Virus record (IMG/VR): IMGVR_UViG_3300034092_001898
Location: 13,246-77,245 of that record
Reading direction: 5' to 3' (one strand)
Origin: a virus
DNA: 64,000 nucleotides
The notes beneath the pieces were generated by a model. The model saw only the letters and a program-made list of their open reading frames with translations, was not told the origin of the DNA and did not search any database. The position numbers and the translations under genes were made by a program. Positions 16,490 to 45,832 of this stretch are shown in pieces. Position 1 is the first letter of the stretch, and each line of letters begins with the position of its first letter.

Positions 16490-17050
16490 ATGGCCGTTGC
16501 TTTCACTGCGTCTGGCACCCCCACTGTGGGCGGTGTGCAGACTTCCTATCCCCTCGTTCACGACGCCTTCCTGGAAGGTCAACTGGCCGATGCCCGCAAC
16601 AAGGTGATTGACTCTTTCGTCAATGAAACCTCTGGCGTGGTGGCTTTCGGCAACCTGCTGGTTTGGAATAGTGGCAGCACTACTGCTGATTCCGCTCGCA
16701 CCATCTCCGGCACCACTGGCACTGTTGTTGGCCTGAACATTCTCACTTACGTTGACGAAACTGCCCGTGACGCCAATAGCCGCCCCGGCGCGAAAGATCG
16801 TCAACTGATGAACGTTTTGCGTCAAGGTGCTGCTGTGGTTTATGTCCATGGCGCCGTTGATCCTTCTACTCCTGTTCGTGTCATTCACACCGCTTCCGGT
16901 GTGCAGTATGCCGGTCAATTCTCGGCTTCTGCCGTTAGTGGCCGCACCGCCACTCTTTCTAATGCCGCCTACCTGTCCAAGACCACTGGCAGTGGACTGG
17001 CAGTGCTGGAACTGAATGGCCCCACTTTCACTCTCACCGCCAACACCTGA
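16490..17050 (+). CDS. Head decoration/cement protein
   Basis: Between protease and capsid; EGQLAD, VAFG, NVLRQG; rich in small residues. Confidence 0.8.
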   Translation: MAVAFTASGTPTVGGVQTSYPLVHDAFLEGQLADARNKVIDSFVNETSGVVAFGNLLVWNSGSTTADSARTISGTTGTVVGLNILTYVDETARDANSRPGAKDRQLMNVLRQGAAVVYVHGAVDPSTPVRVIHTASGVQYAGQFSASAVSGRTATLSNAAYLSKTTGSGLAVLELNGPTFTLTANT

Positions 17051-17057
17051 GGTAACT

Positions 17058-17972
17058 ATGTCTGATTATCGTATGGACGAGGCGGGACTGTTTCTTCAGC
17101 GCCAACTGGAGTACATTCGCCCGCAAGTGTTTGAGACGGCTTACGCCGACATCAAATACCCCACCCTTTTGCCTGTCACCAGTGAGGCTGGCCCCGGCGC
17201 CCAGCAGTTCACCTATCGGGTGATGGACAGCACCGGTAAGTTTGACTTCATTGCTGACAATGCTGATGACCTGCCGCGCTCTGACGTGAGCCAGGTCGAG
17301 AAGTCAATCTACTTCCGCTCCATCGGTGGTTCGTTTGGCTACACCGTCCAAGAACTGCGTGCCGCTCAAATGGCCAACGTGGCTCTTGAGTCGCGTCGTG
17401 CTGCAGCGGTTCGCCGGGCTTACGAAGAGAAAGTGGAAGACATCGCCATGTTTGGTGATGTTTCCACTAATCTCACTGGCTTCTTCAACAACCCCACTGT
17501 GGATGTTGTGACTGCCGACAAGTGGTTTGACACCGCAAGTGTCACCACCACTGAAATGCTTGAACTGCTGAACTATGGTTCCACTGCCATTGTGAATGGT
17601 TCAAACATGAAGGAGCAGCCTGACACCCTGCTGCTTCCTTGGGTTGACTATCAAAAGGTCTCCTCCACTCGCAACAGTGATTCCAGTGATCTCACCGTCC
17701 TGGAATACTTCCTGCGCACCAACCCCTACATCCGCAACATTGAGCCCATCCTGCAACTGGACAACAGCAAGACCACGGGCAAGCTCAACACCCGTCGGAT
17801 GGTGTTCTACAAGCGGGACCCTGAAAAGCTCCAACTGCACATTCCGCAGCCCCTGGAACTGTTCCCGCCCCAGCAACGCAACCTGCAGTACATCGTTCCC
17901 GCCCATGCTCGCGTGGGTGGCGTAGCGATTTACTACTCCAAGAGCGTTGTCTACGTGCAGCGCAGCACCTGA
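17058..17972 (+). CDS. Major capsid protein (DUF2184 type)
   Basis: FLQRQLEYI, YTVQELRAAQ, GFFNNP, PDTLLLP, ARVGGV; strong codon bias. Confidence 0.9.
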   Translation: MSDYRMDEAGLFLQRQLEYIRPQVFETAYADIKYPTLLPVTSEAGPGAQQFTYRVMDSTGKFDFIADNADDLPRSDVSQVEKSIYFRSIGGSFGYTVQELRAAQMANVALESRRAAAVRRAYEEKVEDIAMFGDVSTNLTGFFNNPTVDVVTADKWFDTASVTTTEMLELLNYGSTAIVNGSNMKEQPDTLLLPWVDYQKVSSTRNSDSSDLTVLEYFLRTNPYIRNIEPILQLDNSKTTGKLNTRRMVFYKRDPEKLQLHIPQPLELFPPQQRNLQYIVPAHARVGGVAIYYSKSVVYVQRST

Positions 17973-18020
17973 TCCCTGCAAGGGGCGTTAAGCTAATTGG
18001 TGACTGTTTCTCCCAAGCAA

Positions 18021-18407
18021 ATGCTGATTGCCTATCGCCCCGAGCTTGAAAACCCCCCGCGAGAAGGTGGCTTTGGTGTCATCGTAGATCAAGGGTTAGT
18101 ACAACTGGCTCCTGGTCTCAATGCAGACGTACCTGAGCAAGCATGGCAGCAAGCCCGCAATAATGCAGAAGTTAAGCGACTGATGCGCATTGGGGCAATC
18201 GAGGAAGTAGTAGAACAAGCAAACGTGCCTGAGGTCAGCGACAACGTGGAACTGCTTTCCAATTTGCCACTGACTGAAGCCCTGCGAACCATTGAGCTAA
18301 TCCATGATGCAGAACTGCTGCTGAACTGGAAAAAGCAAGAAGGTCGGGTGCGAGTGCGGAACGCAATCGTCCGTCGTCGTACTGCCATCGCTGAAGGTCG
18401 TGCCTAA
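18021..18407 (+). CDS. Hypothetical protein following the capsid gene
   Basis: Operon position; EGRVRVRNAI C-terminal helix. Confidence 0.65.
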   Translation: MLIAYRPELENPPREGGFGVIVDQGLVQLAPGLNADVPEQAWQQARNNAEVKRLMRIGAIEEVVEQANVPEVSDNVELLSNLPLTEALRTIELIHDAELLLNWKKQEGRVRVRNAIVRRRTAIAEGRA

Positions 18408-18712
18408 TGGTCACTTACTCCGGGTTTTTGGATCGGTTTCCCGAGTTCATCCCCCATCCATCGGGGATTGTCCTCGGGGCTATTGCGGAAGCCTCGGCGG
18501 ATGTTAGCGAAAGCGTGTTTGGCTCACAGTCAGATCGCGCCATCAAGCATCTTGCAGCCCACATCATTGCCTCGCAACTTGTCCAAATGGGAGCGCAAAT
18601 TGGTGCCACTGACGGCAAGGTCTATGGGAAAGGGCTAGAGGCAACGCAATATGGACAGGAGTATCTAAGGATGCTCAACAGTTGTTCTTCCACCATTGGT
18701 TTTGTTGTGTGA
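18407..18712 (+). CDS. Head-tail adaptor (DUF4054-like)
   Basis: FLDRFPEF, HLAAH, TQYGQEY. Confidence 0.85.
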   Translation: MVTYSGFLDRFPEFIPHPSGIVLGAIAEASADVSESVFGSQSDRAIKHLAAHIIASQLVQMGAQIGATDGKVYGKGLEATQYGQEYLRMLNSCSSTIGFVV

Positions 18713-18716
18713 AGAG

Positions 18717-19103
18717 ATGAATGGACTATCGCCACTGGCAAACGCAACCCTTATCTGGGAAGTGGCTAGTGGCTACGCCCTAGATCCTTTCACTCAAAAC
18801 TATCGCCCGGTTTCCAGTGGTGTGGTGTACTACGCCACCCTCAAGCAAAAGAACAATCCACGGTATGACTACCTTTTAGGTGCTGATCATACTGCTGTGT
18901 ATATGGAAGGGCGCTTGACTGGTCCATTGGCACTTTCGGGAGTTAGTGCTGGTGCTTCAGCCAAAGCAACAATCAATGGAAGGGAAGGACGATTTGAACT
19001 ACTGCCTAACGAACATCTTGTGGAACACTATTGGCAGTTTCTAGGACAACCAATCAGGGGAGTGTTTAGACTGATTGGTAAAGGAAGCGTCTTGAACGCT
19101 TAA
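18717..19103 (+). CDS. Putative head closure/neck protein
   Basis: Position between adaptor and tail tube; beta-rich. Confidence 0.5.
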   Translation: MNGLSPLANATLIWEVASGYALDPFTQNYRPVSSGVVYYATLKQKNNPRYDYLLGADHTAVYMEGRLTGPLALSGVSAGASAKATINGREGRFELLPNEHLVEHYWQFLGQPIRGVFRLIGKGSVLNA

Positions 19104-19135
19104 CCATTTTCCCCCTCCTTTGTTTTTTTAAGACA

Positions 19136-19714
19136 ATGCTCTTCCATCCGACTGAACTGGTTAAGAGCCAAGACGTTATCCTGCGTGTTGGCTCCATCAC
19201 CGGCACCGCCCGTCCTATCATCACTCAATCTGGCGCCACTTTCACGGTTAGCGGTGCTCCCACTCTCTATACGCTCCAGGCTGCTACTACTGCCAGCATT
19301 GCTTTCAATGATGGCAATACCGAGTTTTATCTTCTCGGCGGCGGTGGCTTCTCCGACAGCGTGATTGTCACTGCTGGCTTGACTGTTTCCGTCACTTCCT
19401 ATTTCCAAAAGGACGTTGATGGCACCACGTTCCTGCCGAATAGCTTTGATGAGGCATTCCAGATTGTTACCACTGCCCGGTACGACAAGAACGCTGAAGT
19501 CTACTTTGAAATCAACAAAGAGCTTGGCGCTTCTGGCACTACGTTCTACTACGACCGAGTGGCTGGCGTGTCGCGGGTGATGAACTACAACGAAAGCTAT
19601 CCTGCAGACAACCTTGTCGAAGTCACCTTTGACCTTGTGAGCCGCAGCCGCTACGGCATTCACCAGTCTGCGACCAGCAGTGGCAGCATCATTCCGATCG
19701 CTCCCAACTCCTGA
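19136..19714 (+). CDS. Major tail tube protein
   Basis: High-expression codon bias, beta-rich, ends YPADNLVEVTFDLVS, followed by a terminator. Confidence 0.75.
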   Translation: MLFHPTELVKSQDVILRVGSITGTARPIITQSGATFTVSGAPTLYTLQAATTASIAFNDGNTEFYLLGGGGFSDSVIVTAGLTVSVTSYFQKDVDGTTFLPNSFDEAFQIVTTARYDKNAEVYFEINKELGASGTTFYYDRVAGVSRVMNYNESYPADNLVEVTFDLVSRSRYGIHQSATSSGSIIPIAPNS

Positions 19715-19739
19715 TAGTCCTTTCCATCGTTCCTTTGTT

Positions 19740-19770
19740 AGCCTCCCCATAGCGGGAGGCTTTTTATTTT
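19740..19770 (+). terminator. Intrinsic terminator
   Basis: AGCCTCCC/GGGAGGCT followed by a T-run. Confidence 0.85.
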
Positions 19771-20176: not shown

Positions 20177-20394
20177 AAATGCTGTCAAGCGATTGCGGTA
20201 GCGCATGGCTTTTCAATGTAAAGAGAGAAGAGGATCAGCTAGTTGCTGGCCTTGCCTGCTTCGTCAGCAATTCTCCGGAGCAAGTCATTGTGCAATGGAG
20301 AGGCGAAAGGCTAATCCTTGGACTTCCCCATCGTGCCGTGTCTAATCCCATGCCGTGTCGTGTGCTGAATGCTAGACTTGCGCTGCTTAATTGA
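20173..20394 (+). CDS. Hypothetical protein
   Basis: ATGA-coupled ORF. Confidence 0.5.
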   Translation: MKMLSSDCGSAWLFNVKREEDQLVAGLACFVSNSPEQVIVQWRGERLILGLPHRAVSNPMPCRVLNARLALLN

Positions 20395-20399
20395 TTTTC

Positions 20400-32427: not shown

Positions 32428-32832
32428 ATGCCTCCTCTCTACGGTCGTGATGCCAACGGCAATGATGCCTATATCAATGCGGCTGGGAGCGGCACGGCAA
32501 GTTCTCCGTATTCCACGGTGCATGATGCCGTGGCATTTGGCCTGCTGAGCGCTCAAGTTGATGGTGCGGCCAGCGCAGACGTAGTGACAGCCGTGAGCGG
32601 CTACAAGGTGCGAGTGCTGGGACTGGCCCTAACGGCTGATGCGCCGTGCTCTTTGCGGTTCCAGACGGGCGGAAGCGGCAATCTGACTCCACGGTTGCGA
32701 GTGCCTTCGGGCGGTACCGTCACCATCAGTAACGACTTGGGGCTTTTTGATACCACGGCGGGCGACAAGTTGAACGTGGTACTGAGCGGTGTTGCCAATT
32801 ATGGCGTTCTTTGCACCTACCGCTTGATTTGA
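32428..32832 (+). CDS. Putative virion structural protein
   Basis: Beta-rich, Ser-Gly-rich, in the structural operon. Confidence 0.65.
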   Translation: MPPLYGRDANGNDAYINAAGSGTASSPYSTVHDAVAFGLLSAQVDGAASADVVTAVSGYKVRVLGLALTADAPCSLRFQTGGSGNLTPRLRVPSGGTVTISNDLGLFDTTAGDKLNVVLSGVANYGVLCTYRLI

Positions 32833-32834
32833 TT

Positions 32835-33539
32835 ATGAGCACCTTCCTGCCATTGCGGGACATTCCGCAAATTGACATTACGCTGTTTGAGCGTGATTAC
32901 TTTGATGGCATTGGTTTTGTGTTGCAGGATGACAATGGAGACCCTATCGACCTTTCCAGTGCCACAATTTGTGCCTCAATTTATCAAACTACGGCTTCTG
33001 GAACCAGCAGCATTGTCACGTCGTTTAACGTGCAAAAGGAGGAGCCATTCACAAATGGAGCCTTGAACCTGTGGCTTTCGTCGGCTCAAACGCAGACCGT
33101 ATGGTCAGCCTATCAAGGTTACACGACTGGCAACTACCACTTGTTTGTTCCATCGGCTTATGCCAATGAGCAAAGCACAATGGAGCAAACCAACTTGACT
33201 TGGGACTTGCGAATTGAGGTGCCGGAGAAGGCGGCAGATCTTTTGGCCGTTGCTAGTGGTGTTTTTACAGCACAAACTGCGCCACGCATCGCCTCTACAG
33301 ATCGTTTGGCTTTTAGCGGCACCACATCCTCGGGACTGAATTGCAACTTCACCACTGCGAGCCCATTGTACTCTGGGGCCACAAGTGTCAGCCAAGTGTC
33401 TCCCTATCGCTTTACCATTGCTTCTCTTTCTGGTACCACGAATAGTGCATTGGGCGGAGCTTTGTATAAGCTGAAGCAAGACACGGTTATAGTGGGAAAG
33501 ATAGTGGTCGCACAGACCGTCTCTAACTGTTTTGCATAA
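32835..33539 (+). CDS. Putative fibre/baseplate adaptor (BppU-N-like)
   Basis: LQDDNGDPIDLS..L.LSSAQT..WDL. Confidence 0.55.
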   Translation: MSTFLPLRDIPQIDITLFERDYFDGIGFVLQDDNGDPIDLSSATICASIYQTTASGTSSIVTSFNVQKEEPFTNGALNLWLSSAQTQTVWSAYQGYTTGNYHLFVPSAYANEQSTMEQTNLTWDLRIEVPEKAADLLAVASGVFTAQTAPRIASTDRLAFSGTTSSGLNCNFTTASPLYSGATSVSQVSPYRFTIASLSGTTNSALGGALYKLKQDTVIVGKIVVAQTVSNCFA

Positions 33540-33541
33540 CC

Positions 33542-35281
33542 ATGGCTGATTTGAGGGAAGGCATTAGCGTTGTCACGGTAGGAAGAACGACGCCCATCCC
33601 TCCAGGGCCTCAGCCTGCCGCCAAGAGCCTTCCGGTGGTGCTGGCCACGGACACTGAGGCTGTGCCAGTGCGAGTGGCGAACCAGCAGATCACAGAGGTT
33701 TCGCTGAGTCTGCTTGGTGTCCCCCGCTCAGAGGTGGCGCTTGGAATCTTCGCGGACGTGACCACCTATGACATTAACCAAAACGAATGGCAGAGCCGAG
33801 GTGGACTTGGCACCATTGCGAGCGCAGGAACCACCACGCATATTCCCGCTGAAAGCGCAGCCAAAGTTGCCTGTAGCGCTGCCACGACGCCACGCAATCA
33901 ACTGCTGAGCAGCAAGCGCTTCTTCCGCTATCAGCCTGGCCGTGTGAGTAGCTCCACGTTTGGCGTGAGGATGACGATTAGTGCCGACGGTGGTGACATT
34001 AAGAAGTGGGGATCATTTGACAGCAATGATGGTTACTACTTTGAAGTGCAGGGAGGCTCACAGACTGGCACCGATAAGGAGACAAACTTTTATGTGGTGA
34101 GACGAACAAGCGCTTTTGCGTCTTACTCAACACTGGCGCCCAATACTGCCGCTGGAGAGATTGGCACGATTGGCAGCAGCCTGGTCATCAAGCGTGATGG
34201 TCTCACCTATGTTCATGCAGGGCTCTACGACGAAAGCCTGCGAGTGGCTGGCGGGACTGGCGGCAGCACCATTGAAACAGGTTCTGCATTGTCCTTCTCT
34301 GTGCCTGCAGACTATCGCTACACCTATGAGTATCGAGTACCACGAAAGTATTTCTCCTCTGACCGCATGGACGGTCTTACCAGCACTCAATACTATGCCG
34401 ACGAAGTGCCCGGCAAGGCATCGTTTGGCCTGACGTTTGGTGGCACGGCTAGCGCACCAATTCCGAATTACACCAATGGCGACGTGGTGGAAGATGAGGA
34501 TGGCAATGTAGTTGCCGATGAATCGCTCTGGGATTTGAACTTCTCACGAGTGACCATGTATAAGATTGAATACTCGTGGTACGGTGCCGTTGGTGCCAAG
34601 TTTCTAGCCTATGTTCCCGACAAGGACGATCCGTCTCAGGCGCGATGGGTGGCCATTCACCACCTTCGCGTCAGCAACCAAATCATCACCCCGAGTCTGG
34701 GTAATCCCACTCTGCCTCTGAGTTACTACGTTCAGAAGCAAAGCAGCGCCAATGAAGTAGCGTTGTTCAAGTATGGCGCAAGTTACTACATTGATGGTGG
34801 CGACAAGGGGACTATTGTTGCTCGTTCCATCGCTAATTCTGCCGACCGCGCCATTACGGTATCTGGCGAAGCGCTGATTGCGTTGCAGGTTAAGAATGCC
34901 ATCAATTCCATTCGCAATCGGATGCAGGTATATCCCACTCGACTGAGTGTAGGGGTGAATGGAAGGGCCGTAGTTTCGCTGGTCAAGAATCCAACGCTCG
35001 TGTCCGGCGTCCCAACCTTTACTAGCGCCAATGCTTTGAGTCCAATCAACACTTTCATAGGCACCAGTGTTCCGATCGTAAGTGGCGGCACAACTGTTGC
35101 CACGTTCTATGCAGGCGATGGAGGGAACGAATACGACCTTTCGCCTTATTTTGCGTTTAACAAGGACTACCTTTCTTTCCCATTGGCTGCCACTTCTGGC
35201 GATACGCTGTATGTTTTTGTTCGTGGTGCTGCGGCTACCATTAGTGGCAGTGCTGCTATCACTTGGGAAGAGCAGGTGTGA
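33542..35281 (+). CDS. Virion structural protein (RYQPGR/WYGA family)
   Basis: SKRFFRYQPGR, IEYSWYGA, YIDGGD. Confidence 0.75.
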   Translation: MADLREGISVVTVGRTTPIPPGPQPAAKSLPVVLATDTEAVPVRVANQQITEVSLSLLGVPRSEVALGIFADVTTYDINQNEWQSRGGLGTIASAGTTTHIPAESAAKVACSAATTPRNQLLSSKRFFRYQPGRVSSSTFGVRMTISADGGDIKKWGSFDSNDGYYFEVQGGSQTGTDKETNFYVVRRTSAFASYSTLAPNTAAGEIGTIGSSLVIKRDGLTYVHAGLYDESLRVAGGTGGSTIETGSALSFSVPADYRYTYEYRVPRKYFSSDRMDGLTSTQYYADEVPGKASFGLTFGGTASAPIPNYTNGDVVEDEDGNVVADESLWDLNFSRVTMYKIEYSWYGAVGAKFLAYVPDKDDPSQARWVAIHHLRVSNQIITPSLGNPTLPLSYYVQKQSSANEVALFKYGASYYIDGGDKGTIVARSIANSADRAITVSGEALIALQVKNAINSIRNRMQVYPTRLSVGVNGRAVVSLVKNPTLVSGVPTFTSANALSPINTFIGTSVPIVSGGTTVATFYAGDGGNEYDLSPYFAFNKDYLSFPLAATSGDTLYVFVRGAAATISGSAAITWEEQV

Positions 35282-37752
35282 CTGTTTCGGGGTACTACCA
35301 AATTGCAGAAGATCAGCAGCCAGCAGGCTATGGGCTTGTTGACTCTGAACTGATTGACTTCACCACGGGCGATACGCTTATCGACTTGGACGATGGCCTG
35401 CCGCTAACTGGAGACACGCAAGAAACTGTCATTAGCGCATCTGGAGCTTTTCCGGTAGCCCTGATGAACAGTGCTGCCATTCCAGTGGAGGTGGTGAACC
35501 AGTCGGTTAGCGAGGTGGAGATTGGCCTGCTGGGTGTCCCTAGGGCTGAAACGGCACTTGGCATTTTGGGACTGGTCAACACTTATGGCTTGGACCTGAC
35601 TTTATGGGGGCTTGCGCCAGGCGGTCTATCGCTGTATCAGTATTTCCGCGATCCAAACACTTGGACTTTTCAAGTGAAGGATGGCATTGAGTATGGCTGG
35701 TTTGCGCGACACCTTCCCAAGGAAGCGGCTTTACAGGTTTATGCTTTGCCTCCAGAGAAGAGCTACGAATATCTAGAAGATGATGGTACTGGCCGGTATC
35801 CTGGAGGCTACACCGATGGGGTGATTACAAACTACATTGAAAGCAAGCGCACGTTCAGGTATCAGCCCGGTCGGATTACTGGTGTGACGATGGGCGTACG
35901 AATGTCCACTGATAGTAATTGGCCTGGAGAATCCATCTCTTGGGGGTGCCGCAATTCCTACGGCGATGGCTATTACTTTAGGCTGGACAAGGGTACTGAT
36001 TTGTATGTGGTCAGGGAATCACCGGGCTTGCCAACACTTGTAGTACCAAGAGAACAATGGAATGGCGATCCTGTCACTGTTGAGGCTGGCGATACGGGGT
36101 GGAATCTTGACGTGTCAAAAGTGACAATGTTCAAGATTGAGTTTGGCTGGTATGGCGCCATTGGAGCCACCTTGTTCGCCTATGTGCCTATTGACCATGA
36201 CAATGCACGATGGGTGAAGTTACATTCATTTAGAGCAGAGAACCAGAACACTGTACCGAGCCTGAGAAGTCCGTATCTGAGGATTTTTATTCAGGCAACA
36301 CAAACTGCTGGTGCAAGCACTCCGGCCTTCGTTAACTTGTACGGTAGTAGCGTCTACATTGATGGTGGCGATGATGGCACACTACAAACCGCCAGTGCTT
36401 CAACACCAACAGCAGCAACAATCACCAATCAGGCTCGTTCAATTATTGGCCTACTGCCTGCCACTAGGATCAATGACATTCCGAATCAGAAAACACTATT
36501 CCCGACATCGCTATCATTTTCCTCCGACTTGCCAGCCAGGCTTGATCTGATGGTCGTGAATCCTGGAATTGGCAATAGTGAAAGCTATGGCTATGGCCAT
36601 GGTACGACGATTAGCCGCCCTGCTGCAAGTGGCTTTGCAGTGGTGCGCACTAACGCCACCACGTTGACTGGTGTAATCCCCACTGGCCTACCATTTACGC
36701 CAGCCACTGCCCATGGCTATTTGTATTCTGGCTATCCAGTGAAAGTGGTGGCTAGTGGGCTGAACAACTATTTCGCCACTACGCTAAACGCTACAACGAT
36801 TGGCACCAACCGCAATGTACCAGCAGGCACCACATCTGTTGCTTTAGCCGCTTTTGACGCCTATGCCATTGGCAATAATGCTGAAATTGTGAGTGGCGAT
36901 GGAGTGGACCTAGGGGGTTCTAGGCAATATACCGGCAAGCTCTACTTCACTCGACCCAGCGGCAATACTGGCGGCATCTATTGGCGTCTTGGGCTGTGGT
37001 TAAATGCCAGTGGCACGTACCTGCCTGGAGTGTCCACTGTTTCTTGGCTCGCCACGGCTTTCCCTGGCATTGATTACACGCTGTCTGGTGAAGAGATTGG
37101 GGAAGTGGCATTGCCGCCAGAGACTTTCCGGCAAGTTAGCTTTTCGATTGTTGAAAGTGGAGGAGTGGCGACTGTGCGGGGACGACTGTTCCGACAGTTG
37201 GCTGCGTCTCCTCCTCCGGTTACGATTACAGGCTCACCATTTCCTATAAAGGTCGTAGCCGAACTCTACCCTGGCTCTTCACTGAGCGACGTGGTTCTGT
37301 CTATGGCTGCCATGCCAGACGGCTACTTAGGGCTGGCCGGAGAAGATTTCGCCAATGCCTATGATCGCTTTGCTGTGGTGCCAGGATCAGGGCGAACTTT
37401 AGCCATTTCGGGCTGGACGACAAGTGGCAATATCACTCAATCCGCTGTTGGTGGAGCCAATTATGTTGCCAACAAGTTTGAAACGCCACTAAATCTTCCC
37501 TTGACTGGCGCCCTCGTGGACCTGCAAGGGCGCCGCACGCCCTACAGCCTCTCTTCCATCGCATCGTTCTTTGCCGCCAGTGGAGAGAGCCGTACTGTGC
37601 CATTGTCGGCTTATTTTGGCCCGGATAAAACATTCCTTGCTGGCGGTGCTGACACTCCTTATGGCCTAGGGGCATTGTTCGTTGTGGCATCTGCGAGAGT
37701 GTCAGGCCAGACTGGTAATGTATTTGCATCAATTAACTGGAGCGAACAATGA
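35278..37752 (+). CDS. Virion structural protein, paralog of 33542
   Basis: LLGVPR, SKRTFRYQPGR, IEFGWYGA, YIDGGD, ends WSEQ. Confidence 0.75.
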   Translation: MTVSGYYQIAEDQQPAGYGLVDSELIDFTTGDTLIDLDDGLPLTGDTQETVISASGAFPVALMNSAAIPVEVVNQSVSEVEIGLLGVPRAETALGILGLVNTYGLDLTLWGLAPGGLSLYQYFRDPNTWTFQVKDGIEYGWFARHLPKEAALQVYALPPEKSYEYLEDDGTGRYPGGYTDGVITNYIESKRTFRYQPGRITGVTMGVRMSTDSNWPGESISWGCRNSYGDGYYFRLDKGTDLYVVRESPGLPTLVVPREQWNGDPVTVEAGDTGWNLDVSKVTMFKIEFGWYGAIGATLFAYVPIDHDNARWVKLHSFRAENQNTVPSLRSPYLRIFIQATQTAGASTPAFVNLYGSSVYIDGGDDGTLQTASASTPTAATITNQARSIIGLLPATRINDIPNQKTLFPTSLSFSSDLPARLDLMVVNPGIGNSESYGYGHGTTISRPAASGFAVVRTNATTLTGVIPTGLPFTPATAHGYLYSGYPVKVVASGLNNYFATTLNATTIGTNRNVPAGTTSVALAAFDAYAIGNNAEIVSGDGVDLGGSRQYTGKLYFTRPSGNTGGIYWRLGLWLNASGTYLPGVSTVSWLATAFPGIDYTLSGEEIGEVALPPETFRQVSFSIVESGGVATVRGRLFRQLAASPPPVTITGSPFPIKVVAELYPGSSLSDVVLSMAAMPDGYLGLAGEDFANAYDRFAVVPGSGRTLAISGWTTSGNITQSAVGGANYVANKFETPLNLPLTGALVDLQGRRTPYSLSSIASFFAASGESRTVPLSAYFGPDKTFLAGGADTPYGLGALFVVASARVSGQTGNVFASINWSEQ

Positions 37753-38954
37753 CACTTCCTGGCTTGGTTCGAGCTAACAATTTATCTGACCTCACGAATG
37801 TCAGTGAGGCGTGGGACAATCTAGCCCAAGATCTTGACTATTCATACAATGCGCAGAGAGCCAATTACGTTAACAATTCTGCCGTAATTCGACAGGACGA
37901 AAAAAGTAACGTAACAGTGGCACAAGCCAGTGGTATTCCATTGAGCCATGGCGGGCAGTATGTCTACAAGATCACAGAACAGGCTGGCACTGCGATTCCT
38001 TTTCCGTTTGGCTATCTTCGCGCTGCGGCAACAAGTGCAAATTACGCAAACCTTGACTGGCGACTCAATGTAAGCAATGGGCCAGTAGTGGGATCAATTT
38101 TGCTTAAGGCAGGCACGCATAGCTTTGTTGGCATGGCGTTGCGACCTGGGAATGGTGGCAACTTCTTCAAGGACACCAACTATCCCTTTTTTGGTATTGA
38201 CTTGCTTACGGGCAATCGCCAAGATTGCTTTGGTACCGGCAAGCCCTATGAAATCATGGGAGCCGTAGAAGAGGAGGACGGATGGTGGCGAGTGTCCATG
38301 AGCAGCATTTGCCAGCAAGCGTATGGCACTGCTTCGATTGACTTAATCTTTTTGCAGCAGGGCAATTTAGCAGTGGTGCCCAATGCGTCATCCACTGATG
38401 GCAGCAAGTTCTTTTATGCGGCATTGCCACAGATTGAAACTGGCCACGAACCATCGCCAATCATTATCACAGTCAGTGAGCAGCCAGTATCACAAGCGAC
38501 TGTTGCAACGTCGGCCAGTGGCTTGAGCTTTGGTGGAGAGGACATTAGTGCCATTCGTGGTCTAAGCAATGTTGGCACCACCAATCTTTTGCTGGCATCA
38601 TCATTGCTCAGAGCAGCGCAACCACGCATTAGTCAACTTCAAGCGTCAGGCCAAGCGGCAGTTGCTTCGGGGGCTAATTGCCTGCCCATTGTTTCTCCGT
38701 CGTCTACTGGCAATTACGTCGTCAGCGGTCTTGTCGCCAGCGGCTATAGCGTCAATGGAAATGCAATCAATACCGTATCTGTTAGCCCTTTGTCTGGCAC
38801 AACAGCCACTGTGCCACTGCAAGTTGATGGCCTCATTCCTCAGGCATGGAAGGCCGATACAGCATTTGCGTCAGGCAGTCTTTCGTCGCCAAGTCTTGCA
38901 ATTCCCATTGAGTATGATGGTTTTTACGTGGCCATCGTTGTGGGGCAAGCATAA
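37749..38954 (+). CDS. Fibre/spike protein
   Basis: GLVRANNLSDL N-terminus; GWWRVS..PQIE carbohydrate-binding-like domain. Confidence 0.7.
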   Translation: MTLPGLVRANNLSDLTNVSEAWDNLAQDLDYSYNAQRANYVNNSAVIRQDEKSNVTVAQASGIPLSHGGQYVYKITEQAGTAIPFPFGYLRAAATSANYANLDWRLNVSNGPVVGSILLKAGTHSFVGMALRPGNGGNFFKDTNYPFFGIDLLTGNRQDCFGTGKPYEIMGAVEEEDGWWRVSMSSICQQAYGTASIDLIFLQQGNLAVVPNASSTDGSKFFYAALPQIETGHEPSPIIITVSEQPVSQATVATSASGLSFGGEDISAIRGLSNVGTTNLLLASSLLRAAQPRISQLQASGQAAVASGANCLPIVSPSSTGNYVVSGLVASGYSVNGNAINTVSVSPLSGTTATVPLQVDGLIPQAWKADTAFASGSLSSPSLAIPIEYDGFYVAIVVGQA

Positions 38955-40300
38955 TGGCAAGACGCTATGGACTGAGAGCCAGTTCTAATCTTGCAGACGT
39001 TGCCAATAATACGCTTTGCGTTGAAAATCTCAACCTTCGTATTGCTGACTTTGTTTCTATTGCTGGCATCAGCGCTACTGGCGTTACTCCTAGCGATTTC
39101 GCTGCACTGCAGGGGCTTCGTGCGCCACTAGAGGCTCAGATCACGGGGTTCGCCCCTATTGCTGCAGCGCTTCTATCGGGACTGGCCTTGAAAGCCCTGC
39201 GGACTGGAGATTACATCAGTGGCACGCTCACCGTTAATGGGATTGTCTCTGGGGACCGGGCCTTCATTCGCACCACTGGCAGTGGGGCTGTCTACAGTGC
39301 TGCATCAGGGAGTTTCTTTTCGCCCATTAGTGGCAGTACGTTTTCCGGCGGTGGCTTTTACCTTTCTGGCCCAACACGGATTAGCGGCCTCAACACTGGC
39401 AGTGGCTTGGGCAACTACACTGGCACCACTTTTTCATGGCAGCCTCATTACGAAGACTACAAAGTGTATCAGCGCATCACCAATAGCTCTGACACTCTTT
39501 TCGCTATTCGCACCAAACTGCCTCCTCCGACTGTTTTTAGTGGCTGCCAACTGTGGCTTGATGCTGAGAAAAGTTCGGTTTCGTACTTTGCGGCCAATCG
39601 GATTAGCCAATGGAATAGCCTGATTAGTGGTGGACCAAGCGCAGCGCAATTAACAAGCGGCAATGCTCCGTACTATCTGGTTTCTGGCATCGTTGACAGC
39701 GGCATCCTGAAACCCGGCATCAACTTTACTGGCACTGACTTTTTCTCCCTAAGTTCACTTGGCGGATTCTTTCCCGATGGGGCTACGGTTGTCATCATGG
39801 CCCAAGTTGAAGATGCAGACTACTGCTTGTTAGGTAACAACTCAAGCAATGCCGGACGTTGGCGCACCACTTCGGGCAATGGCACTTGGCCGCTATTTTG
39901 CGCTTCGCCCATTGATCGCTTCCCTGCAGTTATGCCTGCCAATGGAACATTTGTGTTTGGTATTAGAGCATCACAAGCCTACGGGTTAGAAATTAGGAGC
40001 AATGGACAGCGGTTAGATTATGCCTCCCCATCAGGTTTTGAATATCAAGCCAGTGGAGAATACCTGCTAGGTACTGCTCCTGGTGGCGCCGGACGTTTCG
40101 GGGGAAAGGTGTTCGCCGTGGTGGCCTTTAATCGAGTGCTGCCAGATAGGGAATTGCGCACCGTGGAGGAGTATTGCCTGTGGCGCTATAATTCAGTCTA
40201 TAACCCTGATGCCACGCAAACTTTGCAGTTAGAGGATGGTTCCTTCCTGCAACTTGAAACTGCATCTGGTACCACTGATTTCGTCGTAGATCTAGGCTGA
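38954..40300 (+). CDS. Fibre protein with LamG/ConA-like domain
   Basis: GLRASSNLAD; QLWLDA..ISQW..FNRVL..VEEY. Confidence 0.75.
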   Translation: MARRYGLRASSNLADVANNTLCVENLNLRIADFVSIAGISATGVTPSDFAALQGLRAPLEAQITGFAPIAAALLSGLALKALRTGDYISGTLTVNGIVSGDRAFIRTTGSGAVYSAASGSFFSPISGSTFSGGGFYLSGPTRISGLNTGSGLGNYTGTTFSWQPHYEDYKVYQRITNSSDTLFAIRTKLPPPTVFSGCQLWLDAEKSSVSYFAANRISQWNSLISGGPSAAQLTSGNAPYYLVSGIVDSGILKPGINFTGTDFFSLSSLGGFFPDGATVVIMAQVEDADYCLLGNNSSNAGRWRTTSGNGTWPLFCASPIDRFPAVMPANGTFVFGIRASQAYGLEIRSNGQRLDYASPSGFEYQASGEYLLGTAPGGAGRFGGKVFAVVAFNRVLPDRELRTVEEYCLWRYNSVYNPDATQTLQLEDGSFLQLETASGTTDFVVDLG

Positions 40301-40689
40301 TGACAAAACTGAGCCAACTAGCAGTGATTTCCGGCTCGGCATTAGCCGATAACGACCTGCTGTTTGTCAATGATGTAAGTGATGCGTCATTACCGAGCAA
40401 GGCTTTAACGATTAGCGGCCTGAAGCAAGCGATTGCTTTGGCTTTTGTGGGCACCAATCCTGAGGACATTCCCCTCAATCAGCATCTTGGCGATCTTGCG
40501 TTTCTTGACACCTTCCAGCCCACGATTGTTAGTGGCCTTAACGTAAGCTCTGACGTAGCCTCTAGCGGTGTTCGCACAGCCACCTTCACTGCCACTAATG
40601 CTCCAGGGGCTTCTAACGTCGTGGTAAGGCAATGGTTGCCAGTAGTGATCACTGGCGTCACTCATTACCTTCCATTGTTTGCTCCTTAA
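40300..40689 (+). CDS. Small fibre-associated protein
   Basis: TKLSQL, GTNPEDIPLNQHLGDLAF. Confidence 0.65.
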   Translation: MTKLSQLAVISGSALADNDLLFVNDVSDASLPSKALTISGLKQAIALAFVGTNPEDIPLNQHLGDLAFLDTFQPTIVSGLNVSSDVASSGVRTATFTATNAPGASNVVVRQWLPVVITGVTHYLPLFAP

Positions 40690-41996
40690 TGCCTGCTGGT
40701 TATCCTACGGTTAGGCCACTGCAAATGCTTGATTACGCAAATCAAGCAAACATTGACTCGCGCTTTGTTTTTACGCGATCTACAACTGGCTCTTACGTTG
40801 ATGCTTCTGGCATTCAACAAGTTGTCGGAGTCAATGAACCGCGACCATCGTACCATCCGCTAACGGGAGCCTATCAGGGCTTGCTACTGGAAAGCGCAGG
40901 CACCAACTTGCTGCCATGGAGCAATGACATTACAGCATCTGGCTGGTATTACGCTCCGCAAAATGGCGCTATTGGTTCAGGGTACACGGGCATTGGGGGG
41001 CTTCCCACGGCTTATCGTGTTGCGGAAGGCAGTGTACCTGGGACATGGTTTATTGCCACTTCTGTTGCCATTAGCGGCCAAACTAATTATGGAGTATCGG
41101 CGTTTCTGAAAAGCGATGGCGTGAGCCGTGGCTATTTGCAGTTTGTTGGTGTTGATGCAAGCGGAGTGGTGAAAGGCAATGTGGTGGTTTATTTTGACCT
41201 ACGCCGAGAGCTTGTATTCCCAGAAAACTATGGCGTCAACACAGATACAGCGCTGCTAGAAAAACGCAAAAATGGGTGGTTTCGCGTAGGGGGAACTGGC
41301 CCAATCGCATCCGGCGCGGTACTGGGAGTAGTGAACTTAGTGCTGCAACGTGACGATGGAAGCCTATTTTATCAAGGGAATGGACAAGGCTTGCTGACGG
41401 ATGGTTTTCAAGTGGATGCCAATGGCAGCAATGCCTACATTTCTTCGTTCATTGCCACGTCAGGAACGGCTCTTACTCGCGCTGCAGATGCCATAACAAG
41501 CGCCAGCAATCAACTTGATGATTGGTACGTTCAGAGCGGAGCCACTTTTTATCAAGATGCCTTGGTACTGAATGACGACTTTTATGGCAGTGGGCGTTAC
41601 ATTTTTCAAGCACTTGCAGTCGCCACTTCAGCAAGAGCAGAATTACGTATTAACGCTGCCTCCAATGGAGCGCGAATCGCCGGAATAGTCGCTAGTGGAG
41701 TTGTTGCTGATTTTTCGATTGGTTCTTTTGCTCCTGGCAATGGCCTTGAATCATGGGAAGCGCCAGCATCAGGCTCCGGGACAAGCCGAACCATTGCCAC
41801 TCGCTCTGCATTTAGCTTTTCTCCATCGGGACTTTTCTTGGCCTTTAATGGCCAATCTGTTACAACGTCTGGCCTTGTTCCATCTGGCGTTAATCGACTT
41901 AGCTTACAGCCCGCTAATGCCGGGAAAGTTATTCTACGTCGTGCTACCATCTACCCATTGCTCACCAATAGTGAGGCGCTACTGTTAACACAATGA
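40689..41996 (+). CDS. Spike/fibre protein
   Basis: FTRSTTGSYVD..GLLLE..TNLL..GWFR..SFIAT..TRAAD. Confidence 0.75.
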   Translation: MPAGYPTVRPLQMLDYANQANIDSRFVFTRSTTGSYVDASGIQQVVGVNEPRPSYHPLTGAYQGLLLESAGTNLLPWSNDITASGWYYAPQNGAIGSGYTGIGGLPTAYRVAEGSVPGTWFIATSVAISGQTNYGVSAFLKSDGVSRGYLQFVGVDASGVVKGNVVVYFDLRRELVFPENYGVNTDTALLEKRKNGWFRVGGTGPIASGAVLGVVNLVLQRDDGSLFYQGNGQGLLTDGFQVDANGSNAYISSFIATSGTALTRAADAITSASNQLDDWYVQSGATFYQDALVLNDDFYGSGRYIFQALAVATSARAELRINAASNGARIAGIVASGVVADFSIGSFAPGNGLESWEAPASGSGTSRTIATRSAFSFSPSGLFLAFNGQSVTTSGLVPSGVNRLSLQPANAGKVILRRATIYPLLTNSEALLLTQ

Positions 41997-43780
41997 CAAG
42001 GGGACTTGTACGAGCCAATAATTTTTCGGACTTGACCGACAAGGATCAGGCCGTTACAAATCTCGGCCTATCTTCCGTTGATTATGCCGCCTTAAAAGGA
42101 CTCTATACCACGGCAGGAATTGATTTTGCCGTGATTGGCGAGATTGGCAATAGCCAAGGCAACTATCAAGCACAACTCGATGGAGTGTCCAGCACGTTTT
42201 CTGGTATCGTCCTGTCAGGTTATGTTAATCGCTCTGGCAATAGCGCCATTACTGGTAACTGGTCCCATAGTGGCATTATTGATATTGTGAGCGGCCTGCC
42301 CAGCGGTTATCCAGCCTCAACAGACAGCCTGTTTTCCCTTTCCATTGAAAACGGAGAGGCAGTTATTGTTGCGTCCGGATTGATTGCAAGCGGACTATCG
42401 TATAATGGAGTGAGACAATCAAGCTCAACCGTACAACGAGCACTTCCACCAAGCGGCTTTAGTCCATTGCATTTGATTCCTTTACAAGTTGGTGGCCAAG
42501 GGTATTTCGCGGAAGCGGGAGAAAGCCCTAGCTTTCATATTGCCCCGGCTCGACTTGGCCATGCTCTTGACCTTGTTACTGGCAATTTGATCGGCACCTA
42601 CAACTCAGCATCCCCGGCTATGGCCGTCGGTTCCGACGGGCTGCTGTTCACCCCAGCAGCGAATGCGCCGGTCATTGAATACAACCCCGTGACTCGGGCG
42701 TGCCTGGGAACGAGGATCTGGGGGGTGGTGACGAATCAGATCCGCAACAATACGATGGTCGGCGCGGCAACGGGAATACCGGGAACGATGCCGATTAACT
42801 GGAGCGATGTCCCGACCAGCAATGGATTGAGTCGGCAAATTGTCGGGATCGGAACAGAGGCTGGAATCACCTACATAGCCATCCGATACTCTGGAACAAC
42901 AACGGCAACGGCAAGCACCGTTCTGCAGCCTGAATTAAGCGCCGTTGTTGTAGCCGCAACCGGTCAATCATGGACTGCAAGTTCATGGCTTGCATTAGCT
43001 GGCGGCTCAGCGAATGGACTGACAATAGTTCAACGGGTTACCGGCCGCTCCTCTGGCGGTAGCTTCCTTGAGAACACTGATACAACAATAACGCCGAGTT
43101 CGACACTGACTCGCTATGCAGCGTCAAAAACAATGACGAATGCGTCAACATTAAGAGTTTCCTGCGACATTGTCCTTTCCTACAACTCTGGCGCCGCCAT
43201 TGACATCACCCTCCGCATCGGCCTGCCTCAGCTAGAGCAATCGGCAACCATGGGGCCAGTGGTGCCGACGTCAGGACTTATCGCCAGCAGCACCGCCGAT
43301 GTGTGGTCAATCACGGGCGCGGATTTCAACAGGATCTACAATCAATCGGCGGTGACGTTCTACTTTGACGGATCCTACGTTCAGGCCGGCCCCTCATCGT
43401 TTCCCAGGATGATTGCCGCAGTGGGATCAAACCCTAACACTGATGAGGTTAGTATTTATGGCCGCGTCAATACTGGCAGTGGGGATGGTCGCTTTTACGG
43501 CAGTTCTACAATTGCTGGGACAAGTCAATTCACGCTTGGCGAGTTCACATCCCCAGTGATGAATAGCGGCAAAGCGGCGGCGGCTTTCGCCTTGAATGAT
43601 GCCGCTATGTTCGACGGCCAGGTGTTAACGACTGACAACACCGGGACTCTGCCAGTAGCGCAGGAGCTACGGATTATGGGCCAAGCACGTTTTCAGCCAA
43701 TGCCCAACGGCTACATCCGCGAGCTTGCAATTTTCCGCAGCCGTCGGCCTAACGCCAACCTCCAGGCGCTGACAACATGA
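41993..43780 (+). CDS. Spike/fibre protein with probably exchanged C-terminal domain
   Basis: GLVRANNFSDL; TNQIRN, LRIGLPQLE, LQALT. Confidence 0.75.
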   Translation: MTRGLVRANNFSDLTDKDQAVTNLGLSSVDYAALKGLYTTAGIDFAVIGEIGNSQGNYQAQLDGVSSTFSGIVLSGYVNRSGNSAITGNWSHSGIIDIVSGLPSGYPASTDSLFSLSIENGEAVIVASGLIASGLSYNGVRQSSSTVQRALPPSGFSPLHLIPLQVGGQGYFAEAGESPSFHIAPARLGHALDLVTGNLIGTYNSASPAMAVGSDGLLFTPAANAPVIEYNPVTRACLGTRIWGVVTNQIRNNTMVGAATGIPGTMPINWSDVPTSNGLSRQIVGIGTEAGITYIAIRYSGTTTATASTVLQPELSAVVVAATGQSWTASSWLALAGGSANGLTIVQRVTGRSSGGSFLENTDTTITPSSTLTRYAASKTMTNASTLRVSCDIVLSYNSGAAIDITLRIGLPQLEQSATMGPVVPTSGLIASSTADVWSITGADFNRIYNQSAVTFYFDGSYVQAGPSSFPRMIAAVGSNPNTDEVSIYGRVNTGSGDGRFYGSSTIAGTSQFTLGEFTSPVMNSGKAAAAFALNDAAMFDGQVLTTDNTGTLPVAQELRIMGQARFQPMPNGYIRELAIFRSRRPNANLQALTT

Positions 43781-44169
43781 GCCACTATTTCACGCTACAT
43801 TTTGCCTCAGAAGAAGACGCCATTCAAGCCGTGGCAGGCTTAAACTTGCTGCCATTGGAAATAGTTGATGGCGCTACAACTGAACTGCCAGACTCAATAG
43901 TCATCTCTCAAGCCGGAGGGCGCTTGCGTGGAGCGGCTCGTATCATCTCTGGTGTTGCCATTCCCGGCGAATACAACCCAGAAACTCAAGAGGAAATGAA
44001 ACCGCCTATTCCTATTCCTGGTACGTTTGTGGATATTGTCCTCAACCGCAACATCCTCCCATCACAACTCAAGCCCTATCGCGTGCCTTATGGCAGTGCA
44101 GGACACGTTTGGGCTAATAGCACGATGGAGGAAGGGGCATGCCCCCCCCTCTTGCCTCGGCTAACATAA
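43777..44169 (+). CDS. Putative fibre assembly chaperone
   Basis: Follows the fibre gene; LHFASEEDA..G.Y...PP..IPG. Confidence 0.5.
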   Translation: MSHYFTLHFASEEDAIQAVAGLNLLPLEIVDGATTELPDSIVISQAGGRLRGAARIISGVAIPGEYNPETQEEMKPPIPIPGTFVDIVLNRNILPSQLKPYRVPYGSAGHVWANSTMEEGACPPLLPRLT

Positions 44170-44188
44170 ACAAAACAGGACTTGCATC

Positions 44189-44704
44189 ATGCTTCGCATT
44201 AGGAACGGGGAACAACTGGAGCGTCAGTTAATGACCAGCGATGGTCAAGAGGCGAGAATCGCTTTTAGTCGCCCTGGCACTACTTTCACTTATTCTGGCA
44301 ACGTTGTTGTTGGCTCTACGGCATCTGGCGTATTTGAAGTGGTGACGAGCGGCGAAGCGAACATGAGCTTGTTCGTGACCAATGCTCGCGTAAAAATGGT
44401 CCGTAGCGGTGTGCCATCGGGGTATTCGGCAATGCGACTGCATTGGTTCAATGCTGCACCATCAGGTATTAACGATGGATCGGCGCTAGTAGTTAGCAGT
44501 GGCGATAGTGAAAAGTACAAAGGCTACAGCGACCTCATTGGTGTAGTAGATTTGGGGCAAACGATTGTATCTCAAGGCGCTTTGCTGAATAAGCAGATCT
44601 TGCTCAACAGTCCTTCGGTGTGGCTGGCCCTCACTCCTGGCACGGTGTTTGCTGCAGCCTCTGGTACGCCTTATCAAGTGGAACTTGACTACTTTATAGT
44701 TTGA
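44189..44704 (+). CDS. Putative virion protein
   Basis: RLHWFNAAP; Ser-Gly-rich. Confidence 0.6.
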   Translation: MLRIRNGEQLERQLMTSDGQEARIAFSRPGTTFTYSGNVVVGSTASGVFEVVTSGEANMSLFVTNARVKMVRSGVPSGYSAMRLHWFNAAPSGINDGSALVVSSGDSEKYKGYSDLIGVVDLGQTIVSQGALLNKQILLNSPSVWLALTPGTVFAAASGTPYQVELDYFIV

Positions 44705-44982
44705 TGGAAGATCAATACTGGCGGTTTGCTACTGAGTCGGAAGCCATTGGCGCTTTAATGCAAGCCAGGATTATTGCTAGCGGCTCTACTGCCGCCACGG
44801 TTGGCGTCTTGGATTTTGTGGGGACGATTGCTTATGGCGGAAAGTTTGACTACGAAGCTCGACGTTTGACTTCCCCTCCATTGGCCTTTTCTGGCTATCA
44901 CGTTAATTATCGTGGGCCAGTCGTAGCAGGTCTCGCTAAGTATCGCGTGTTTCCCTCTGCTCCATCGCGGAAGTTTGCATAA
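44701..44982 (+). CDS. Putative fibre chaperone, related to 43777
   Basis: WRFATESEA..GYHVN..P..PSRKFA. Confidence 0.55.
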   Translation: MMEDQYWRFATESEAIGALMQARIIASGSTAATVGVLDFVGTIAYGGKFDYEARRLTSPPLAFSGYHVNYRGPVVAGLAKYRVFPSAPSRKFA

Positions 44983-45320
44983 TGGAACCAGCCTGCTTTC
45001 CAATTACCATCACTCAAGGCGCCACTTTTGATTTGGAAGTGGCGTGGCAAGATTCCAATGAAATTGGCATCAACATGTCAGGCTGGACGCTAAAAGCTGA
45101 TCTTTACAATCGCCTTGGCACGCAAAAGCTCGCCTCCTTTGTTTTGCCATGGTCCAATCAGGCCAGTGGTATTTTTAGGCTCACCATGGCAGCCAGCACT
45201 ACAAGTGGCATTACTGAAAACGGCCAATACGATGTTTTTGCCACTGATCCATCTGGGCGAGTGTATTGTCCCCTGGAGGGCTCTGCCCATCTCAATCCCA
45301 GCCTTTCGTTTCGGCCATGA
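44982..45320 (+). CDS. BppU-N-like adaptor protein
   Basis: ITITQGATF..YDV..LEG. Confidence 0.65.
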   Translation: MEPACFPITITQGATFDLEVAWQDSNEIGINMSGWTLKADLYNRLGTQKLASFVLPWSNQASGIFRLTMAASTTSGITENGQYDVFATDPSGRVYCPLEGSAHLNPSLSFRP

Positions 45321-45832
45321 CCATCATTGCTAACGTTACAAACAACAGCGTAGTATTGCGGGAGCCAGGGCCTGCTGGCGCTCAAGGGATACCGGGATCC
45401 AGCGTTAGGTATCAAGCGCAAATTATTCACCTTCCCATTGTTACAATTTCCGGCATAGTGCAAAACGTTTATAGCCCAGTGGCTATGAGTGGTACGTTTG
45501 ACTCAGGGGTGGCCAGTGGTATTGTTGTAGGATCAGGCTTTAGCTTGCGCAATAACACTAACGCCACACTCATTTTCAATGCTAGTGCAGTAGCGGAAGC
45601 CACTGCTAACAACAACGAAAACCTAGGCTTGCGCCTCACTAAGAATGGTGTCACCATTGCCAATAGTGAAACCAGTGCTCACGTTAGCAATTCGAGTGCT
45701 GCGTCTTTGCTGATTGTCCCATCCTTTTACTTGGAGCTTGCCCATGGCGATGAAGTAGGATTGGCCGTGACCAATTTTTCGGCTAACGTCAATATCAGCC
45801 TGCAGCGAACACGGCTAACCCTTAGCGTTTAA
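45317..45832 (+). CDS. Putative virion protein (short collagen-like segment and beta domain)
   Basis: PGPAGAQGIPG followed by a beta-rich domain. Confidence 0.6.
   Translation: MTIIANVTNNSVVLREPGPAGAQGIPGSSVRYQAQIIHLPIVTISGIVQNVYSPVAMSGTFDSGVASGIVVGSGFSLRNNTNATLIFNASAVAEATANNNENLGLRLTKNGVTIANSETSAHVSNSSAASLLIVPSFYLELAHGDEVGLAVTNFSANVNISLQRTRLTLSV

Follow-up and report, generated by a model that had tools for sequence, protein, structure and literature searches.

Ser-Gly excess in the outer virion proteins of an S-CBS4-like cyanosiphovirus: perhaps a lineage-specific way of building turns, less probably a virion glycosylation motif

The dipeptide Ser-Gly (SG) is familiar from two settings. 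It is the sequon of the eukaryotic proteoglycan xylosyltransferases, which is Ser-specific and carries acidic flanks; and it is one way of making the type-I turn plus G1 bulge (the 3:5 beta-hairpin, with ST-turn or Asx-turn capping), in which a small residue or Pro is followed by Ser, Asp or Asn and then by a left-handed Gly that joins two strands. Here we describe an excess of SG in the outer virion proteins encoded by a 64 kb stretch of viral DNA (the window, by which we mean the whole stretch analysed), taken from a 77-kb IMG/VR virus record that is rated complete. The window comes from an uncultured S-CBS4-like cyanosiphovirus, with head and tail proteins 50-76% identical to those of Synechococcus siphovirus S-CBS4, and its head module carries a four-gene island with two predicted glycosyltransferase (GT) genes. 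A preliminary description of the window had proposed that these enzymes modify the Ser of SG. We confirm that the excess is real, and larger than had been stated, and we judge the chances about even that it reflects a lineage-specific turn-building habit without sugar.

Comparison with the closest described systems shows similarities and differences in each case: (i) the mycobacteriophages Che8, Corndog and Myrna encode glycosyltransferases that act on their capsid and tail proteins (Freeman et al. 2023, in the account given by PMC12363180). Set against that account, the window is similar in that its transferase genes lie within or beside structural genes and are kept in relatives, and in that the modification is proposed to fall on capsid and tail proteins; it differs in having a cyanobacterium, not an actinobacterium, as host, and its virion glycosylation is a prediction from genes. 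(ii) The autotransporter heptosyltransferases TibC and Aah hyperglycosylate Ser in short beta-strand turns of TibA and AIDA-I, recognising a structural motif and not a strict sequon (PMC4358343). The window Ser likewise appears to lie in a short loop between two short beta-strands, judging from flank statistics and from DSSP assignments on AlphaFold2 models, a likeness that concerns acceptor shape only; the window enzymes, however, are GT4-like and DXD-type, and its SG proteins are jelly-roll or fibre proteins, not beta-helix passenger domains. (iii) B736L of chlorovirus NY-2A (PDB 3OY2) is a GDP-mannose-binding GT-B enzyme of unknown acceptor (PMC9614988). The GT4-like protein of the window is likewise a virus-encoded, predicted GT-B-type enzyme, and the chlorovirus glycosylates its own capsid, but chlorovirus glycans are N-linked to Asn, whereas those proposed for the window would be O-linked to Ser. 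(iv) With the xylosyltransferase sequon the window shares the dipeptide and the specificity for Ser. The likeness drawn in the preliminary description goes no further, since the window flanks are hydrophobic and depleted of charge, not acidic, and no GT14-type enzyme was found in Pfam and PHROG scans of the island. If the serines are acceptors, their recognition would resemble the strand-loop-strand mode of TibC and Aah more closely than the acidic xylosyltransferase sequon. (v) The type-I turn plus G1 bulge is matched by A/P-S-G amid beta-branched and aromatic residues, in predicted hairpin loops and apparently interchangeable with D-G in homologues; unlike the general turn, in which Asp and Asn are at least as frequent as Ser, the window has Ser dominating across unrelated proteins.

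The excess was measured protein by protein against 5000 composition-preserving shuffles each. Our outer set, partly chosen after the data had been seen, comprises 16 cement, tube and distal-tail proteins; pooled, it holds 121 SG where 45.3 are expected (z 11; observed/expected ratio, O/E, 2.7), which makes SG its most over-represented dipeptide, the runner-up being AS with a z of 4. Other pairs lie near expectation (GS 43/45, TG 42/38, NG 29/24 and DG 30/20, observed over expected), and both the inner structural set (SG 37/40.8) and the non-structural set (32/34.5) give an O/E of 0.9. Eight of the 31 genes in the structural operon reach a shuffle p <= 0.007, about 0.2 being expected. With genes named by their first position, z exceeds 3 for 16490, 32428, 32811, 38954 (z 6.4), 40300, 40689, 44189 and 44982, and lies between 2 and 3 for 18696, 19136, 35263, 41993 and 45317. 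The enrichment thus survives correction for composition and, as the preliminary description had seen, belongs to the outer proteins, with controls at expectation. The counts of that description were reproduced to within one: the major capsid protein has no SG in 304 amino acids (0.7 on average across the clade), the protease 1, the portal 5, TerL 3, the tail tip 5 (4 had been claimed) and the tape measure 12 (about 11 had been claimed), all with z < 1. The J-like tail-tip protein is at expectation, and the product of 33542-35281 is unenriched (5 SG, 5.6 expected). Two SG-rich proteins had been missed, those of 32811-33539 (6 against 1.7) and 35263-37752 (15 against 8.0).

It is very improbable that composition, a DNA word, internal repeats or paralogy could account for this excess as an artefact. 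Such an origin might be suspected from the strongest fibre protein, 38954, in which ten SG stand 5-14 residues apart within residues 75-150, a quasi-repetitive stretch, and from the preference for T-ending (NNT) Ser codons before Gly (52% against 29% elsewhere). The shuffles, however, preserve composition, and SG is encoded by 22 different hexamers, with AGY Ser codons used before Gly about as they are elsewhere (48% against 44%); because both Ser codon families are used, the bias acts on amino acids. In the other five reading frames the O/E of SG is 0.9-1.4. Hexamer diversity, codon-family use and the other frames rule out a DNA-word or codon cause, and comparison among the SG-rich proteins, which are not paralogues of one another, rules out paralogy. 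Avoidance of the deamidation-prone Asn-Gly and Asp-Gly is likewise unsupported, both dipeptides being at or above expectation. As an observation in its own right, the preference for T-ending codons (TCT and AGT), seen in the outer-protein genes, is a codon-context effect at the junction of T with GG.

The 121 sites together yield a consensus motif, [IV]-[TV]-[A/I/P]-S-G-[YILVT]-[TV]. As had been noted before, the residue preceding SG is mostly small or aliphatic (Ala 33, Ile 11, Val 11, Gly 11, Pro 10, Thr 9); the residues enriched around the sites are Ala (2.6x), Pro (1.6x) and Ile at -1, Val, Thr and Ile at -2 and -3, and Tyr, Ile, Leu, Val and Thr at +2, while charged residues make up 4-7% of positions -3 to -1 against a background of 13%. 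Ser ends one hydrophobic strand and Gly begins the next. Two predicted structures place these sites in three dimensions. Pfam assigns the cement protein to Phage_cement (PF22758, E 8.5e-14; 52.3 bits, cut-off 27), and although a search of its sequence against PDB chains found nothing useful, its AlphaFold2 model (pLDDT 79) matches the capsid cement chain of Pam3 (8hdt_G; Foldseek E 1.3e-8, TM 0.66/0.73); DSSP puts all seven SG of this model in loops or in the N-terminal arm. The model of 40689 (pLDDT 81), a protein matching the PHROG 5939 tail protein family (E 4.5e-40), consists of tandem lectin-like jelly-rolls, nearest to a Pa193/E217 baseplate-fibre chain and to CBM/laminin-G folds, and 12 of its 15 SG fall in inter-strand loops, at least 5 of them in hairpin connections of 2-5 residues.

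Comparison with homologues indicates where these dipeptides came from. A library-wide search for relatives of the cement protein returned 260, whose 127 full-length representatives show an SG O/E of 1.34 and a mean of 1.65 SG, against 7 in the window and 3-8 in typical members of the S-CBS4-like clade; at the seven SG sites of the window these representatives mostly have AG, GG, SA, AA or TA. Distant homologues of the 40689 lectin domain occur in RcapMu, a T5-like coliphage, Nonlabens and Rhizobium phages and the cyanomyovirus S-CAM4, with an SG O/E of 0.6-1.95, and at site 40 of this protein 18 of 19 close relatives have SG and 6 of the 7 distant phage homologues DG. A need for SG intrinsic to the fold is ruled out for the cement protein by its 127 family representatives and for the lectin domain by its 7 phage homologues. 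Since other residues occupy the equivalent sites in distant homologues, the lineage has fixed SG at turn sites that are filled otherwise elsewhere, and these alignments support acquisition of SG by the lineage over dictation by the folds. S32-G, S39-G and S133-G of the tube protein are retained in 45-48 of 48 distinct relatives, and in the close 40689 family (48-100% identity) conservation is 0.87 for the Gly and 0.76 for the Ser of SG, against 0.74 for other Gly and 0.58 for other Ser, the Ser of SG being seldom replaced by Thr.

The candidate enzymes are encoded in the island between the portal and protease genes. The GT4-like protein falls below the cut-off of Pfam Glycos_transf_1 (24.0 bits, cut-off 26.4), and among solved structures it comes closest to B736L of chlorovirus NY-2A (E 5e-14, across about 290 residues, 11-302). 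The DXD-type enzyme matches the glucosyltransferase domain of TpeL weakly (E 0.06); it is 61-91% identical among relatives, is absent from S-CBS4, L046 and L071 (L numbers are our labels for loci), and has no match among 50,697 phage records. From its matches, the product of 11490..12170 is likely to be a sugar O-methyltransferase, and its counterpart in the related genome G002 also matches a rhamnosyl O-methyltransferase family. For the fourth protein, 12158..13465, the structural neighbours in the Atlas are a domain that bacterial polysaccharide enzymes carry joined to HAD hydrolases, GT2, GT4 and RgpF, which we treat as a lead only. In Pfam and PHROG scans the island proteins gave only GT1/GT4-type, DXD-type and methyltransferase matches, and no heptosyltransferase family. 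The GT4 is present in every relative with enough upstream flank and the DXD enzyme in nearly all, and no GT-free member of the S-CBS4-like clade was found among 80 IMG/VR loci. The accessory genes vary between relatives (L089, L092 and L096), with DUF4422, an FAD oxidoreductase, a xylose-isomerase-like TIM barrel, a sugar C-methyltransferase and an O-methyltransferase. A second cyanophage lineage has a transferase in the head module, the Microcystis siphovirus Mae-JY09 (L128), whose GT4-type gene (9787-10971) has the capsid gene as its immediate neighbour on one side and the head-tail adaptor on the other. A tblastn search of the GT4 against the 50,697 phage records returned no mycobacteriophage. 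The island thus very probably directs, late in infection, the synthesis of a methylated glycan of variable make-up on some target. A constant core of GT4 and DXD enzyme combined with variable accessory genes recalls O-antigen-style diversification.

Whether SG excess goes with transferases was surveyed in 16 genomes with one open reading frame (ORF) caller and one statistic, and in Mae-JY09 in addition, an ORF being called extreme at a Poisson P < 0.01. Nine genomes were counted as GT-free (S-CBS2, lambda, SPP1, L5, RcapMu, P12024S, P106B, X2_25 and AKFV33), on the basis of no PF00534 match in any of the nine; S-CBS2, RcapMu, P12024S, P106B and X2_25 were checked also for PF00535 and the DXD enzyme. 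Among GT4-bearing genomes, the window and S-EIVl have 5 extreme ORFs each, G002 and S-CBS4 2 each, Mae-JY09 1, and G001, G003 and TJE1 none. The preliminary description had proposed comparing phages with and without transferases. Strong SG excess was counted in four of the eight GT4-bearing genomes and in none of the nine GT-free ones; extreme ORFs are found mostly in GT4-bearing genomes, but three of these have none and the pooled SG O/E overlaps (1.09-1.73 with GT4; 0.70-1.65 without, lambda standing at 1.65). In the structural proteins of lambda, which has no glycosyltransferase, SG is the top dipeptide, with 63 where 38 are expected (O/E about 1.6). G001 carries both transferases intact and at full length (59% and 72% identical), yet has zero SG-rich tail proteins, and in S-CBS4, which carries the GT4, the cement protein holds a single SG and the large fibres are unenriched. 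The most telling genome is that of S-EIVl, an unrelated Arctic cyanophage, which has a GT4 43% identical to that of the window and a 562-aa protein (L086 and L099, 78221..731 of its record, across the record start) with 25 SG against 7.4 expected, which is non-homologous to all window proteins and has its SG between the same flanks, in a quasi-repeat (for example ANFTSGNYQTVSG and ANFTSGNFQNLSG). Because the window was itself chosen for its abundance of SG, and about four independent lineages make up the GT4-bearing genomes, the link between SG excess and GT4 is only suggestive. A further SG-rich protein is the 949-aa fibre protein of G002 (L093, 44213-47062 of its record), many of whose 28 SG stand in a repeat of A-S-G-A-I-T type; this unit recalls the A-D-G-A-I/V-T fibre repeats of other phages, with Ser in the place of their Asp.

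How, then, should the excess be read? On the reading we prefer, SG would be a device, selected in this lineage and specific to it, for joining the beta-strands of outer proteins tightly. The Ser side chain would cap the turn in the manner of an ST-turn instead of an Asx-turn, with Gly in the left-handed conformation of the G1 bulge; SG would in that case do the structural work of the Asp-Gly found elsewhere, minus its charge, and the fibre cassettes of the clade would use this habit to differing degrees. The flanks of SG, its placement in loops of the models, the DG, AG, GG and SA at equivalent sites, and the conservation of Gly above Ser all favour this, as do the baseline reached by lambda without a transferase, the overlap of the pooled ratios, the example of G001 and the absence of SG from the major capsid protein. 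Several points weigh against it. A plain turn preference should favour NG and DG no less than SG, yet these stand at 1.2 and 1.5 times expectation and SG at 2.7; many non-homologous proteins of one genome are affected together, which points to a cause at work on the lineage, not on the fold; the nine GT-free genomes together have one extreme SG ORF among about 450, in contrast to the counts in GT4-bearing genomes; and for a preference of this lineage for Ser we have no independent reason to offer. A turn role and a role as sugar acceptor are not mutually exclusive.

The proposal of the preliminary description, that the phage's glycosyltransferases use the Ser of these hydrophobic-S-G-hydrophobic turns as their acceptor and that SG is a true O-glycosylation motif, is in our view possible but doubtful. 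Either the GT4 or the DXD enzyme would start a chain that the other extends and the methyltransferase caps, recognition would be of a short strand-loop-strand shape, by analogy with the autotransporter heptosyltransferases, and outer proteins would accumulate sites until the particle bore a glycan coat. Its strength lies in the island, whose conserved core with variable accessory genes is what one expects of a surface glycan under diversifying selection, whose GT4 is nearest to B736L, and whose GT4 type recurs inside the head module of Mae-JY09. It also fits the acquisition of SG by the lineage, the concentration of extreme SG proteins in the GT4-bearing genomes of our sample, and the joint presence in S-EIVl of a related GT4 and an unrelated SG-rich protein, and it has precedents in mycobacteriophage virion glycosylation, as far as the account cited above goes, and in the action of TibC and Aah on Ser in beta-helix turns. 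On the other side stand G001, with both enzymes and no SG-rich tail protein; TJE1 and G003, without any extreme protein; the single SG of the S-CBS4 cement protein; the major capsid protein, which is the most abundant surface protein and lacks SG; the unenriched J-like protein and 33542; Thr-Gly, which is not enriched; lambda, with its high ratio and no transferase; and the few independent GT4 lineages in a survey built around a window picked for its excess. The proposal is supported in part, by the Ser-then-Gly specificity of the enrichment, its acquisition by the lineage and the conserved island, and runs into G001, S-CBS4, the major capsid protein, lambda, the hydrophobic flanks and the fit of the motif to a canonical beta-hairpin turn. 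A trifle less probable still is its most specific form, in which the B736L-like GT4 and its partners, in S-CBS4-like cyanosiphoviruses and in S-EIVl, would attach O-glycans to the Ser of hairpin turns of hydrophobic-Ser-Gly-hydrophobic type, in the cement, tube and fibre proteins alike, to give a methylated coat. We think it unlikely, and more so than glycosylation, that Ser before Gly has been selected for some other surface property, such as fewer charges on long-lived fibres, hydration or flexibility of the turn, or another modification of Ser, with the island acting elsewhere, for example on the host envelope. The distal tail proteins do have the lowest share of charged residues among the sets compared (13.6% D+E+K+R against 14.8-20%), charged residues are depleted beside SG, and Ser-Gly replaces the Asp-Gly of distant homologues; but these proteins show no depletion of DG or NG (1.7 and 1.2 times expectation), charge content and SG excess are only weakly related across nine sets, and no candidate enzyme for another modification was seen.

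The two principal readings would have different consequences. If the serines bear sugar, cyanophage particles would be covered by glycans of the phage's own making, at sites that can be foretold, with effects on adsorption, survival in water, grazing and host range; virion glycosylation would become predictable from sequence in metagenomes, and this would be the first sequon-defined virion glycosylation outside the actinobacteriophages. If the dipeptide is a turn habit only, it cautions against reading sequons from dipeptide counts, and it would still be a marked preference for Ser, over Asp, Asn or Ala, ahead of Gly, in which the fibre cassettes of a single phage clade differ from one another.

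The features concerned are collected in Table 1. The head part of the window runs from TerL (minus strand) through the portal, a conserved 225-aa gene, the four-gene island, the HNH endonuclease and the protease to the cement and major capsid proteins; the tail part follows with neck genes, tube, tape measure and tail-tip genes, after which distal tail and fibre genes occupy about 13 kb (32428-45832).

Table 1. Glycan-island genes, neighbouring endonuclease and SG-bearing virion proteins of the window (SG counts are given against the expected number; aa, amino acids; SAM, S-adenosylmethionine)
Feature	Position	Strand	Observations
GT-B glycosyltransferase (GT4-like), first island gene	9587..10807	+	PHROG 2170 glycosyltransferase, E 2e-47
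Small DXD-type (GT-A-like) glycosyltransferase	10804..11520	+	Gly_transf_sug PF04488, 21.4 bits, below cut-off 23
SAM-dependent methyltransferase (Methyltransf_24-like)	11490..12170	+	Pfam E 2.7e-4, below cut-off; PHROG 21658 methyltransferase, E 5e-17
435-aa protein, uncharacterised	12158..13465	+	Island member; no Pfam or PHROG match
HNH/NUMOD4 homing endonuclease	13496-14017	-	Between glycan island and protease gene; S-CBS4 has one at the equivalent place
Capsid cement/decoration protein	16490..17050	+	7 SG/186 aa against 1.74, p 0.0008; GS 2
Neck/tail protein	18696..19103	+	3 SG against 0.83, z 2.5
Putative tail tube protein	19136..19714	+	4 SG/192 aa against 1.67; function from gene order only
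Small distal tail protein	32428..32832	+	5 SG/134 aa against 1.52, z 3.2
Distal tail protein	32811..33539	+	6 SG against 1.67, z 3.7; no GS
Virion structural protein (PHROG 1645)	35263..37752	+	15 SG against 8.0; 13 of 15 in residues 456-829
Fibre-module protein	37749..38954	+	8 SG against 4.4, z 1.9
Fibre protein, strongest excess	38954..40300	+	19 SG/448 aa against 5.7, z 6.4; GS 5
Small fibre-module protein	40300..40689	+	4 SG/129 aa against 0.81, z 3.9
Lectin-like (ConA/laminin-G-type jelly-roll) baseplate or tail-fibre protein	40689..41996	+	15 SG/435 aa against 5.4
Tail fibre protein (PHROG 5939)	41993..43780	+	15 SG against 7.65, z 3.0; 9 in residues 70-154
Small fibre-module protein	44189..44704	+	8 SG/171 aa against 2.1, z 4.6; no family match
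Small fibre-module protein	44701..44982	+	2 SG against 0.68, z 1.8; alone not significant
Small protein, PHROG 1084/3304 (annotated tail-fibre assembly)	44982..45320	+	4 SG/112 aa against 0.88, z 3.5
Tail fibre protein (PHROG 24754)	45317..45832	+	5 SG/171 aa against 2.1, z 2.2

Several of these proteins have SG-rich homologues elsewhere. The relatives of 18696 have a pooled SG O/E of 2.7; gp41 of S-CBS4, homologous to 32428, has 8 SG where 2.0 are expected, and the G003 homologue of 32811 has 7 where 2.6 are expected; and the homologues of 44982, namely gp51 of S-CBS4 and two G002 genes, are SG-rich too. The tube protein had no family match in Pfam or PHROG scans, a Pfam scan of ten distal tail proteins gave no match, and the cultured relatives found for the tube and cement proteins were S-CBS4 and one Vibrio phage, with no others. 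The genes 33542-35281 and 35263-37752 are tandem paralogues (40% identity over 175 aa of the N-terminal part), and the SG excess of the second is limited to its extra C-terminal 370 residues, beyond the stretch paralogous to the first.

Two long antisense ORFs, 15428-16918 (-) of 496 aa and 19100-19750 (-) of 216 aa, overlap the protease and cement genes and the tube gene, respectively; they are probably spurious, and they mislead a gene caller that takes the longest ORF. At the end of the window, in positions 60001-64000, G+C rises to 0.59, against about 0.51 in the remaining window.

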